Source: an uncultured Gammaproteobacteria bacterium
GTDB taxonomy: Bacteria > Pseudomonadota > Gammaproteobacteria > CAISUE01
Length of the DNA: 64,000 bases
Assembly (NCBI GenBank): GCA_964471475.1
Contig: CAYYFQ010000006.1
Location: 75 to 64,074, forward strand
Reading direction: 5' to 3'
The position numbers and the translations under genes were made by a program. The notes under the pieces are model-generated. The model did not search any database. It saw nothing but the letters and a program-made list of their open reading frames with translations, and was not told where the DNA came from. Of this stretch, positions 34,500 through 60,744 are shown in pieces (positions within the stretch are counted from its first letter, which is position 1; each line of letters opens with the position of its first letter).

Positions 34500-34832
34500 A
34501 TGCAGTTGACAGAACTTCAGCAATATCAGCGTGATTACGATAAAAATTTTTATGAAATCAACTCTCCTGATTTTCATAAAATTCGCCATATTTTATTGCA
34601 TTTAACCAAAACGAATGGAAAATTAGCCGCTTATTGCGAAGCAAAAGAACATCGAGTAAATCAGAATACTTCTTTGGATTTTGAATTTTCGGAAGAGATT
34701 ATTCCAGATCTTTTGTTATATGCGTTGCAATTAGCAAATATTTTTGAAGTTGACTTGGACGAGGCTTATTTAAAACATCTTGAGGCGAATAAAAAAATAC
34801 TAGAAAAAAAGCGCTATGCAAAATTTCGCTAA
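34500..34832 (+). CDS. MazG-like nucleotide pyrophosphohydrolase domain protein (tentative)
   Basis: 110-aa all-helical ORF. HILLHLTKTNGKL and EEIIPDLLLYALQLANIFEVDLDEAYLKHLEANK resemble the EExxE/D helical core of small MazG-family enzymes. Its stop is embedded in the recurrent motif AAAATTTCGCTAATGC. Confidence 0.35.
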   Translation: MQLTELQQYQRDYDKNFYEINSPDFHKIRHILLHLTKTNGKLAAYCEAKEHRVNQNTSLDFEFSEEIIPDLLLYALQLANIFEVDLDEAYLKHLEANKKILEKKRYAKFR

Positions 34833-34887
34833 TGCTCTGCTTGTTTTTTATTTATCATGATGTTACAAAGACACTCAATCTGCAATC

Positions 34888-36879
34888 TTAAAGTCTAGCA
34901 ACCGTATTACATAAGGGTGCGCCAGGCGTTGGGGCGTCCTCAATACGTGGACCTCTACTTGGCGGCAAAGAGGGCGATCCTAATAACATGCCAGGAAAGC
35001 TTGGTATGCTTTGAGGTATAGTCGCATCAGGGCTACTGATAGAAGCGAGTGTTGGTTCAACCAGCGGAGGAGGCGTAGATAAAGAGCTGTTTTCGACCGC
35101 ATGTAATGTGTCTTTATTCTGCAGAGCAGGATTTCGCCATGTCCATCCTTCAAGCAATTCCAGATCGACAAAATTATCTTCTCTATGGTAAGTAGAATCA
35201 GCATTAAACCCTAGCTTTGAATAAAATATTCTGCCGCCTTCATTTTTTCTTCGTAGCAACAAGTGAACGGCATGTAAATCAGGAAGTACATTAAGATTCA
35301 TTAATGAAAAAACGAGTTTTGTGCCAATACCTTTACCTTGGTAATGAGGATGAACCACAAGTAAATTCATATAAACAGAATTTAAATCAGTTTTTTCACG
35401 TTGAAAAGTCGCCCACCCGACTAATTTTCCATCGACAGTTGCTTGCACCCAATAATGCAAATCTCCACGAGCAAAATCGGCGAATTCGGTTGCAAAATAG
35501 TTTTTATAATATTGTTCTACTGATTGGTCACCCTCACGCCATGAGGTCAACTCAGCACTGATGTCACAAGGCTTAAGATATTTTTGATATTCGCCAATGA
35601 AGCTTTCCACGAGCACATCACTCGCGGCTACTTGATCAATGTCGGCTGGTTTACTTACAAGCTCAATCACTGTCGGAGAACGTTTTCTCTCAGAACTCCC
35701 AGCAATAGATAGCTTTACTCGCAATGCTTCTTCAGTTTTTGCAAGAACACCCTCTAATGTTTCTATTGGAATTTTTTTAAAAACTTCGAGTACTTCAGCT
35801 TCAATAAATTCAAGTTGCCCAGTCGCATTACGCTTAAAAAGCAAAATGGGTGTTTCAAAAGGATTAGCAATACCCACACTGTCATTTTCAGTGATCGCTT
35901 GTTGAGTGACTTTGATCAAAGCTTCCAGCTGTTCGGTAGAAAGATCATTTAATACATGCTGAAAATAAACGTTACCGTTATTGATATGATCCAGCTCATG
36001 AAGCATAACGCGCGCATCAGCGCCAGTAAATTTTTTTTGATGAGTTACACCTGAAAGATCTTCATGTTCAACAGTTACAGCATTTGGACGTAACACTTGA
36101 GCTCGAGTGACTCCTTGGACACTTAAACAGCCTTCTCGAAATAAAACTAATTCATCACTTTGCCAAATGACTCTGGGATTGAGATAACATTCCATAGGCA
36201 TAAATAATACCCCTGGATAGCGTGTGATGACTTTAGCCGTATGTTCAGGATGCGCATAATCGGTCCCTGCCAAAATAATGCTTAGCGGATTTTCAATTTC
36301 AAGTGATTGATTAGCAGCAATTCCTGCGCCCCCTGTAGCATATAAATCACGTTTCAGAACATCAATTTGTACTTGAATATCGGGCGAAGAGAAATCCGTG
36401 ATTGTTTCAGCAGGGTGATGCAATATTTCATCGTGAATTTGTCTAATGGATAATGTATCAGGCGGTGTGGTTTGTGCAGAAAGTTCATGTAGATTGTATT
36501 GACGTGTGAAGCGTTTTTTTTCATCAAAAAACGCAATAGCATGTAAATATTTCTCCTGGGAATCACCCACAGTTTTGTAAGAAATTTTAAACACCAGCGC
36601 GGATAAAGCATCATCATCACGTACACAAACCACATCGGGGTTTCCTACGGTTTCTATTTGAGCTACAAATGCTGTTCGGCGAGGAAAATCATAATCAGCT
36701 TCAGAAATTGTCATTGTCGATAATAAAAATGCTTTAGCTTTTTCGCTTAACTCAGGGTCGGCTAAACGAAAAAAAGCGGCTACGCGTGCTAAAAATAAAT
36801 CTTGAAGATTTTCGGGTTGAAAGTCTCCCGCAACAATATGAGCCCAATGGGATGCTAAAAAATCGGCAGTGATAGCCAT
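34888..36879 (-). CDS. Three-domain fusion protein: novel N-terminal module + peptide deformylase-like domain + GNAT acetyltransferase, with a Pro-rich C-terminal tail
   Basis: All three PDF motifs are present in order: GGAGIAANQ, EGCLS, HELDH. GNAT motif A VHPHYQGKGIGTKLV. The first ~45 aa (MAITADFLASHWAHIVAGDFQPENLQDLFLARVAAFFRLAD) are shared with the ORF at 48834-49190. Confidence 0.7.
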   Translation of the reverse strand: MAITADFLASHWAHIVAGDFQPENLQDLFLARVAAFFRLADPELSEKAKAFLLSTMTISEADYDFPRRTAFVAQIETVGNPDVVCVRDDDALSALVFKISYKTVGDSQEKYLHAIAFFDEKKRFTRQYNLHELSAQTTPPDTLSIRQIHDEILHHPAETITDFSSPDIQVQIDVLKRDLYATGGAGIAANQSLEIENPLSIILAGTDYAHPEHTAKVITRYPGVLFMPMECYLNPRVIWQSDELVLFREGCLSVQGVTRAQVLRPNAVTVEHEDLSGVTHQKKFTGADARVMLHELDHINNGNVYFQHVLNDLSTEQLEALIKVTQQAITENDSVGIANPFETPILLFKRNATGQLEFIEAEVLEVFKKIPIETLEGVLAKTEEALRVKLSIAGSSERKRSPTVIELVSKPADIDQVAASDVLVESFIGEYQKYLKPCDISAELTSWREGDQSVEQYYKNYFATEFADFARGDLHYWVQATVDGKLVGWATFQREKTDLNSVYMNLLVVHPHYQGKGIGTKLVFSLMNLNVLPDLHAVHLLLRRKNEGGRIFYSKLGFNADSTYHREDNFVDLELLEGWTWRNPALQNKDTLHAVENSSLSTPPPLVEPTLASISSPDATIPQSIPSFPGMLLGSPSLPPSRGPRIEDAPTPGAPLCNTVARL

Positions 36880-59400: not shown

Positions 59401-59601
59401 ATTAACCTCCTCTTTATGAAACTGTTCTAGATGTTCATTAAATGTAATTGATATGTAATTGCCCGAAAACAGGTATTTTCACCGAATAGCCTTAGTTTAA
59501 AAAATATAATTGAATGGTTGTTCAAGGTTATTGGTATTTTAAACATCACCACGTTGGATGGGTCGATGGATTGAAACAGGTATTGTCAGAAGCCTTACCA
59601 G

Positions 59602-60744
59602 CTAACCAGAGAGATTATCCTGTTTTTTGCCTCCAAAATAAAATTTCGCTAATGCTTTGTTGAGCGGTTCCGAATAATAACGAGCCACCAGATCTCCAGT
59701 GATTCCGCAAACGAATAAAAGGGCTAAATACCAAAATGGCAAAAAGAGTGTGCTGATATGTTGAACAAAAAATGTCGCTGTTAATGGAATGAGAATAATC
59801 ATATGCGTTAAATAAATTTCATAACTGTGCCGGCCATACCAGCAAAAAAATCGCGTTAATTTAGGTATCTGATTAATCCCTCTGGTGTAGCGTTGGTATA
59901 GAGAAATTAATACAAAAGCCGTTCCCATTTCCAACAGCGTGACTTGTAAACTGTATTTTGTTAGGCCTAAGTCAAACACGGTTTTGCGAGCGACGATAAA
60001 AAATAGCATTGCCGCTAGGCCAAAGAATAACATGGCTTTCAGTTGCGTTGTATCAAATGATTTTTTGCTGGCCCATATGGCCGCCAAACAGCCTAAAGCG
60101 ATGCCATCCATACACGATAAATAATTATGATCTTGCCAAATATCATCAGCTCCATAAGAGCGTGCAAACGGGCCAATCATCACGAAACTGAGCATGAGCA
60201 AAATGAAACAACGTTCATTTTTAACAAAACGGCAAATCATCGGGAAAAAGAAATAAAAACATTCTTCGACGGATAAAGACCACATCACATCCCATACGCC
60301 AGGTAAGTGTCCCGTTTTTCTTTCCAGCATATTAAGATGAAAAGTGAGTGCAGAAAAAATCGTTTCAGCTAAGGTAGCTTGATTCGATTTCAACATAAAA
60401 CCTTCGACATGCATTACATGCAAGCAAGAAATAATGATGATGACACCTAATAAAAGCGGCATAATTCGCGCGAATCGAATCCAGTAAAATTCACGTGATT
60501 TAATGTGAGTTAAGCTCCTCCAACGTTTAATGGAAGTGCTGGTGATGATGAAACCGGATACCACAAAAAATATGATCACGCCATAATAGCCACTCCATAA
60601 TAAAACTTTGAGAGAAGCGGTGGGGAGCGCTTGAGCTAAGCTGCTTTGATCAACATGAAGGCGAATATTAATGTGCAATAAAACGACGGCTATGATGCAA
60701 AGGCCGCGGATGATATCGATGGAGTGAATGCGTTGCGAGCTCAT
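59602..60744 (-). CDS. Acyltransferase family 3 (OafA/YrhL-like) integral membrane protein
   Basis: 10-11 predicted TM helices. N-terminal IDIIRGLCIIAVVLLH motif typical of acyltransferase_3. The recurrent 16-mer is embedded in its 3' end. Confidence 0.75.
   Translation of the reverse strand: MSSQRIHSIDIIRGLCIIAVVLLHINIRLHVDQSSLAQALPTASLKVLLWSGYYGVIIFFVVSGFIITSTSIKRWRSLTHIKSREFYWIRFARIMPLLLGVIIIISCLHVMHVEGFMLKSNQATLAETIFSALTFHLNMLERKTGHLPGVWDVMWSLSVEECFYFFFPMICRFVKNERCFILLMLSFVMIGPFARSYGADDIWQDHNYLSCMDGIALGCLAAIWASKKSFDTTQLKAMLFFGLAAMLFFIVARKTVFDLGLTKYSLQVTLLEMGTAFVLISLYQRYTRGINQIPKLTRFFCWYGRHSYEIYLTHMIILIPLTATFFVQHISTLFLPFWYLALLFVCGITGDLVARYYSEPLNKALAKFYFGGKKQDNLSG

Follow-up and report, generated by a model that had tools for sequence, protein, structure and literature searches.

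An 18-nt DNA word recurring across the mosaic accessory region of an uncultured Legionellales-like bacterium matches no known repeat type

The window analysed here is a 64,000-nt stretch of contig CAYYFQ010000006.1 (positions 75 to 64,074 of the forward strand; assembly GCA_964471475.1), and our subject is an 18-base word, AAAATTTCGCTAATGCTT, that recurs among its accessory genes. Judging from ClpB, which shares 76% identity with its Legionella counterpart and 85-86% with those of uncultured relatives, the host is an uncultured Legionellales-like gammaproteobacterium with a GC content of about 40%. The first part of the window (1-31.5 kb) carries the core genes tgt, ispG, murG, nrdA, aceF, clpB, comM and nnr together with orphan proteins. 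From 31.6 kb onwards the gene content is accessory. This includes TipAS, APH-like, several S-adenosylmethionine methyltransferase, deformylase-GNAT fusion, xylB, HAD, flavin reductase, aldo-keto reductase, GH5, esterase, AmpC-like, GNAT, acyltransferase, FosA and MFS genes. GC content is lower in the word-bearing region than in the core part, and the accessory region shows no similarity to plasmids. No tRNA gene was found in the window.

Seven strong copies of the word (0-2 mismatches of 18) lie between 34820 and 59657 (Table 1), and adding three to four decayed copies brings the count to seven to eleven in 25 kb of dispensable genes. Over 17 nt, four strong copies are identical and three differ by one base; 17/17 identity in four copies amounts to about 34 bits. 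A sequence-only reading of this DNA had listed six copies of a 16-17-nt motif and judged their recurrence far beyond chance. All six are present, with offsets of 0-3 nt, and the recurrence was borne out: within the window, eight matches with at most two mismatches to the 17-mer were found versus 0.09 expected from dinucleotide shuffles, and 11 matches with at most four mismatches to the 18-mer versus 1.2 in shuffles. Among over-represented k-mers of the window, sub-words of the word rank second for 10-mers and top from 11-mers upward. The alignment of flanks which that reading had proposed revealed no similarity between copies beyond the word itself; flanking sequence is unrelated on both sides and the word family is sharply bounded. 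Copies are spaced 0.8 to 8.7 kb apart, six of the seven strong ones are in direct orientation, and the order along the region, decayed copies included, is + + + + - - - + + + +. The match in clpB is probably a coincidence, since it encodes a conserved KALAxFLF peptide and relatives already match 14/18 at the same clpB position.

Table 1 Copies of the 18-base word and related matches in the window.
Feature	Coordinates	Strand	Match to word	Context
Strong copy	34820..34837	+	17/18 (AAAATTTCGCTAATGCTC; last base C)	
Strong copy	37606..37623	+	17/18 (first base T)	inside xylB
Strong copy	38407..38424	+	16/18 (CAAATTTAGCTAATGCTT)	inside xylB; absent from the sequence-only list
Strong copy	47090..47107	-	18/18, exact	intergenic
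Strong copy	50209..50226	+	18/18, exact	at methyltransferase remnant
Strong copy	56010..56027	+	17/18 (C8>T)	spacer past VOC/glyoxalase gene
Strong copy	59640..59657	+	18/18, exact	in acyltransferase 3' end
Probable decayed copy	44289..44306	+	right half GCTAATGCTT exact; left half needs one indel	intergenic
Probable decayed copy	45103..45120	-	15/18	within 639-aa orphan ORF
Probable decayed copy	48481..48498	-	15/18	overlaps start of AmpC-like N-terminal fragment
Possible decayed copy (could be chance)	57830..57847	+	14/18	within GNAT gene
clpB match, probably no member of the word family	23240..23257	-	16/18	

Of the seven strong copies, four touch coding sequence and three supply or abut gene ends; called stops are no more than 100 nt away from four (p = 0.025), or from five with the methyltransferase remnant included. 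The copy at 34820, which sits between convergent genes, contributes the final three codons plus stop (..AKFR*) to a complete 110-aa MazG-like open reading frame (ORF; 34500-34832); homologues of this ORF terminate no more than a few residues away from that point, in a variable C-terminal tail. The copy at 50209 supplies ..KFR* to a 100-nt methyltransferase 3' remnant (50094-50194), and the earlier observation that the motif provides last codons and stop in two cases holds for both. The exact copy at 47090 lies between the convergent 639-aa ORF and a split AmpC-like gene, whilst the copy at 56010 fills the 28 nt separating two minus-strand genes and is 3 nt beyond the stop of the VOC/glyoxalase gene. 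Paralogous glyoxalase 3' ends at 41716 and 54451 are without the word.

The sequence-only reading had rightly placed a copy inside xylB, but its count of one missed the second at 38407. The first xylB copy reads N-F-A-N-A and replaces the usual I-P-x-x, including a nearly invariant Pro; the second, in the same frame (N-L-A-N-A), lies 86 nt upstream of the stop. Both are without indel relative to nine homologues, and the ancestral-like sequence at the first site already resembled the word. Identity to relatives is uniform along xylB and homology is continuous across both copies. This uniformity rules out xylB as a mosaic bounded by its two copies. In the acyltransferase the position given earlier, at the 3' end, is correct: the copy runs antisense within the final 56 nt of this minus-strand gene, reading A-L-A-K-F, 38 nt before the stop.

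The word is part of the natural sequence of this organism. Eleven tested window proteins (ClpB, NrdA, MurG, xylB, acyltransferase and six others) match a public collection exactly, and a single metagenome-assembled NCBI contig of 84,410 bp, of which the window is a part, encodes all eleven. Two stretches of the window, 36926-38765 and 58720-62405, are also reproduced at 100% identity by independent Logan assemblies of SRR16481182; they cover both xylB copies and the acyltransferase copy. The exact protein matches and the Logan identity rule out a planted motif and an assembly or adapter artefact.

We further investigated the occurrence of the word inside and beyond the window. All strong copies fall within 34.8-59.7 kb (p = 0.016 for so narrow a range with seven uniformly placed points). 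The 34 kb of core genes, which would hold about 10 copies at the density of the accessory part, contains no copy other than the probably coincidental 16/18 match in clpB. In relatives, zero copies at two or fewer mismatches were found in about 126 kb of loci, comprising clpB (L163-L165; 85-86% identity), xylB (L111-L112; 64-71%) and flavin-reductase loci (L169-L172; 66-75%); about 60 kb of this total is core loci. Scans with the 18-mer gave 42 single matches in metagenome sequences and 8 in viral sequences, and BLAST against plasmids and phages also gave single matches, in each case at chance level and with none clustered. In a scan of genome contigs with the 17-mer (at least 110 matches listed), the matches listed were apparent chance ones save for a Campylobacter gene, which is a conserved gene, and a repeat in an Oscillospiraceae metagenome-assembled genome (CAYJEQ01). 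The latter carries the exact 17-mer, among the matches listed, on three contigs (L015, L022, L103), two of which share a longer repeat (..AAATTTCGCTAATGCTTTACAGCGAAA..CACAAAACTCT..) that is that genome's own, with no sign of a relation to the word. The shorter sub-word CTAATGCT showed only about a 2-fold excess in the core part and in relatives, explicable by Ala-Leu-Ala coding. The word's sequence is not reported in the searchable literature.

The region holding the copies is both mosaic and decaying, with three glyoxalase 3' ends, a split AmpC-like gene, a kinase remnant and a TraC fragment. A degenerate segmental duplication relates 36753-40604 to 49064-53703. Paralogous segments are found at 36753-36902 versus 49064-49213 and at 39870-40288 versus 50094-50194 plus 53094-53393; the flavin reductase paralogues are 90% identical in DNA, and paralogous DNA of the accessory region as a whole is diverged by 10-27%. 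The second copy of the duplication retains only 100 nt of the methyltransferase 3' end, lacks xylB-HAD and contains an inserted GH5/esterase block of 2.9 kb. One end of this block coincides with a copy of the word. Homology to the intact methyltransferase paralogue (39870-39973) ends after the first 8 nt (AAGAAAAT) of the copy at 50209; about 2.9 kb of unrelated genes follow, and homology returns at 53075, just before the second flavin reductase.

The AmpC/serine-hydrolase-like gene (47386-48486) is split into two ORFs of 245 and 102 aa and is probably a frameshifted pseudogene; a distant intact paralogue is located at 58021-59400. A C-terminal remnant of a eukaryotic-like Ser/Thr protein kinase (..DPxxRPxxxxVL..) at ~49700-49920 belongs to a kinase type typical of Legionellales effector genes and is here a pseudogene fragment. 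An 88-aa ORF (42780-43046) matches the N-terminus of TraC of F-type type IV secretion systems, suggesting that part of the accessory region is decayed conjugative-element DNA. Two Legionellales-like contigs aside, xylB (37002-38510) is closest to Chloroflexota/Anaerolineae proteins, at about 60% identity, and its mid-gene GC content is 49% versus about 38-40% in its neighbours. Together these features suggest that xylB was horizontally acquired. Its 90% cluster in the protein collection is represented by an unrelated 37-aa peptide (P0244), with the result that the homologue search returned no self match.

The word was compared with known classes of short repeat and signal sequence. The sequence-only reading had proposed the terminal repeat of a small mobile element, and this was not upheld: a miniature inverted-repeat transposable element (MITE) or insertion sequence end is rejected by the unrelated flanks, the lack of close inverted pairs of copies and the lack of any added length in xylB versus its nine homologues, and no transposase was found among the ORFs scanned. 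The proposed terminator fell likewise, along with repetitive extragenic palindromes and the bacterial interspersed mosaic elements built from them (REP/BIME), as no stem-loop was detected and DNA-fold z-scores for the seven strong copies with 25 nt on each side ranged from -0.85 to +0.53. No terminator-like or promoter-like site is tied to the word. A structured RNA was also rejected: Rfam gave no match in the window at gathering score, and at a permissive E-value none overlapping a copy. Plasmid iterons form tandem arrays with about 22-bp phasing beside a rep gene; they were rejected, given the kb-scale spacing here, and the window ORFs that were scanned yielded no rep gene.

Recombination targets offered closer likenesses. 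Integron attC sites resemble the word in lying at or overlapping the stop of small accessory cassettes. However, attC has a GTTRRRY/RYYYAAC core, a foldable bottom strand with an imperfect palindrome or hairpin, cassettes that share one orientation and an intI nearby, whereas the word has no GTT or AAC core and does not fold, gene orientation around it is mixed and no integrase (intI) was found in the window; attC was rejected. Neisserial dRS3, Acinetobacter pdif and the Legionellales dif-XerL and LME-1 sites are likewise short recurring recombination targets that flank mosaic or mobile modules, but those sites are intergenic with dyad-symmetric arms, unlike the word. The XerL-type dif of Legionellales is about 29 bp long, with 10-bp dyad-symmetric arms, and is present in single copy near the GC-skew switch (PMC9765430, PMC5071653); in this order a mobile element hijacks the site (PMC9765430). 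Searching the window for the Legionella dif/att sequence AAGTCTGATTATTTTGATAATC (PMC5071653) at three or fewer mismatches gave no match, and the word is asymmetric and unrelated to it, so a Legionellales dif or LME-1 attachment (att) site was also rejected. Cumulative GC skew climbs across the entire window.

Two further systems are partly similar. In accreted integrative elements (integrative and conjugative, integrative and mobilizable, and cis-mobilizable elements; ICE/IME/CIME), direct repeats of 15-30 bp bound small modules of an accessory island, at least one of them with an integrase gene. The leftmost copy of the word, in a gene 3' end whose stop it supplies, and the copy at a homology breakpoint fit such att repeats. 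Differences are that no integrase was found in the 64 kb, that copies lie in intact unrelated genes, that modules would be as small as 0.8 kb and that one block of copies is inverted. Sites of this kind are expected at junctions of unrelated DNA and not in gene interiors, yet two copies are found inside xylB with continuous homology. The sfx sites of shufflons, recognised by Rci, are asymmetric, about 19 bp long, conserved on one side only and located in coding 3' regions. They share with the word the occurrence of several asymmetric copies, in both orientations and with unrelated flanks; a shufflon is compact (about 2 kb), involves one gene (pilV) and has rci adjacent, whereas here copies extend over 25 kb of unrelated genes with no rci-like gene.

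Finally, the uptake signal sequences of Pasteurellaceae and the DNA uptake sequences of Neisseriaceae (USS/DUS) share with the word a short, sharply bounded form, unrelated flanks and occurrence in both orientations, as well as intragenic copies made by substitution without indels, some copies at gene ends and decayed copies. Known cores are 9-12 nt long versus 17-18 specified bases here, and known sequences occur about once per kb, evenly and with core genes included, versus seven strong copies in 25 kb. The known sequences AAGTGCGGT, ACAAGCGGT and GCCGTCTGAA have zero matches in the window and the word is unrelated to them, which rejects a known USS or DUS. Every family considered has at least one defining property that the word lacks, and its likeness is divided between USS/DUS on one side and att, sfx or dRS3-type targets on the other.

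Taken together, the word is a real and lineage-specific DNA-level recognition word and is no coding, RNA or structural element. Given that four copies are identical amid paralogues diverged by 10-27%, the copies are probably related by copying or under strong constraint, which is more likely than convergent evolution of binding sites. The explanation we place first, tentatively, is that a site-specific recombination system acts on the mosaic region and uses the word as its core or identity segment. Such a core is favoured by the concentration of copies in mosaic accessory DNA, their mostly direct orientation and position at gene ends, the one copy at a breakpoint and the nearby putative decayed conjugative-element DNA; a length of 17-18 nt is also normal for the identity segment of an att core. 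A recombinase encoded outside the window would act on this flexible, mosaic part of the Legionellales chromosome. Copies of the word would be where it joins, inserts or rearranges small modules of genes (for resistance-like enzymes, methyltransferases or esterases), leaving mostly direct 18-nt repeats at module and gene ends. Both the recombinase that would read the word and crossovers inside it are our best guess, as is the ranking itself, in which priors weigh as much as the data.

Several observations weigh against a recombination core. The suggestion that a recombination site marks the end of the methyltransferase remnant was borne out to the extent that homology stops inside the copy at 50209, but the same duplication has two further breakpoints, at about 49213 and 50093, without a copy. 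Intact genes contain three of the copies, two in xylB alone, with gene length unchanged and homology unbroken, and those in the intact xylB stay outside the recombination model, as duplication of an att site cannot yield length-neutral copies. Paralogous gene ends occur both with and without the word. The dyad symmetry usual in tyrosine-recombinase cores is lacking, the orientation bias of 6:1 is not significant alone (two-sided p about 0.13), and a scan of the window ORFs against NCBIfam or Pfam, covering nearly all of those with at least 80 aa, revealed neither an integrase nor a recombinase or transposase.

The length-neutral copies are accounted for more readily if the word spreads as an uptake-signal-like sequence by molecular drive, with word-creating point mutations or short conversion tracts preferentially fixed. 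This could occur, for example, through biased DNA uptake and homologous replacement, copies arising by substitution wherever the host tolerates them; in a variant, the accessory region would have been imported from an unsampled donor lineage that uses the word. To our knowledge, USS/DUS represent the only established mechanism that gives length-neutral, in-frame intragenic copies with unrelated flanks, as seen in xylB and the acyltransferase. The contact of four of the seven strong copies with coding sequence, the decayed copies and the word-like ancestral sequence at the first xylB site are all in keeping with drive, as are comM in the window and the lower GC content of the word-bearing region relative to the core part. 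Legionella is naturally transformable, which also counts in its favour. Even so, we consider drive unlikely, and the uptake-type signal proposed by the sequence-only reading survives as a rival in a form unlike known signals. Apart from the clpB match, the adjacent 34 kb of core genes lacks the roughly 10 copies expected, the word is absent from the core and accessory loci examined in relatives, and clustered copies are absent from metagenome, viral, plasmid and phage sequences. Its density is far below one per kb, its 17-18 fully specified bases are much longer than known uptake cores, and it matches no known USS or DUS. We know of no uptake specificity in Legionellales, which counts against drive as well.

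Quite unlikely is a binding site for a sequence-specific DNA-binding protein (a regulator, roadblock, silencer or anti-silencer) kept by selection. The regulator site raised earlier is weakly compatible with the data through a few upstream positions: the copy at 50209 is 120 nt before the GH5 gene, that at 56010 is 8 nt before an EstD-like gene, and the copies at 59640 and 48481 precede the two AmpC-like paralogues. Clustering in functionally coherent, detoxification-type genes points the same way. Against this, convergent genes flank two of the copies and another two are found midway or late in xylB. Neither orientation nor distance to gene starts follows a consistent pattern, and no promoter-like hexamers are tied to the word. 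The word is asymmetric, and the identity of four copies is far above what selection on binding sites normally maintains.

That the copies are the decaying remains of an extinct, ultra-short dispersed repeat, functionless today, is distinctly improbable. The graded series from exact copies to 14/18 and the placement of copies in tolerated positions (variable C-terminal tails, pseudogene remnants, spacers) would be expected of such a repeat, but insertion is excluded in xylB by the lack of an indel, and four exact copies amid diverged paralogues point to recent activity or constraint. We also know of no mechanism for the length-neutral spread of 18 nt. It can hardly be that the copies are a by-product of segmental duplication in the region, or an artefact of assembly or adapters: although the region does hold duplicated segments (repeat families D1, D2, D3 and D5), the copies' flanks are unrelated on either side, paralogous gene ends differ in having the word (which rules out an origin in local duplication), xylB reads in frame through both copies, the public protein matches are exact, and the Logan assemblies agree fully with the window across three copies. 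Explanations other than those listed here retain a sizeable minority of the probability.

Other repeats were also present in the core part of the window. Two 165-nt palindromic MITE-like elements (13527-13691 and 24667-24831), 96% complementary to each other and accompanied by a half copy at 105-158, bracket an 11-kb block that extends from a 1150-aa orphan gene to clpB. Their termini are TATACCCATCGTAC...GTACGATGGGTATA, and each carries two outward sigma-70-like promoters (TTGCAA-N17-TTATAA). The orphan ORF (13828-17280, minus strand) contains a (CG)7 tract at 16112-16125, a possible slippage or phase-variation tract. REP-like nested palindromes at 18277-18521 contain GCTGGCATGACA; the same 12-mer occurs three times in the clpB locus of a relative (L164), so these repeats, unlike the 18-mer, are common to relatives.

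In summary, the word is robustly real and matches no known repeat type, on evidence from one 64-kb window. DNA-level signal words are few (uptake sequences, recombinase cores, Chi, dif, attC), and each is informative. The present one is partly uptake-like, in its in-frame, length-neutral copies in genes, and partly recombination-site-like, in its clustered and mostly direct copies, its location at gene ends and its one breakpoint. It is quite doubtful, though conceivable, that an 18-nt sequence spreads here by length-neutral templated replacement into unrelated loci, ORFs included, as a new DNA 'word drive' coupled to uptake, repair or recombination or, equivalently, as the first uptake-type signal outside Neisseriaceae and Pasteurellaceae. 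With a drive word, a new order of intracellular bacteria would join those in which DNA exchange is sequence-biased. If the word is instead a recombination core, it would reveal that Legionellales shuffle gene modules of cassette size by an undescribed system, and that the genes so moved include some for enzymes resembling antibiotic-modifying ones.

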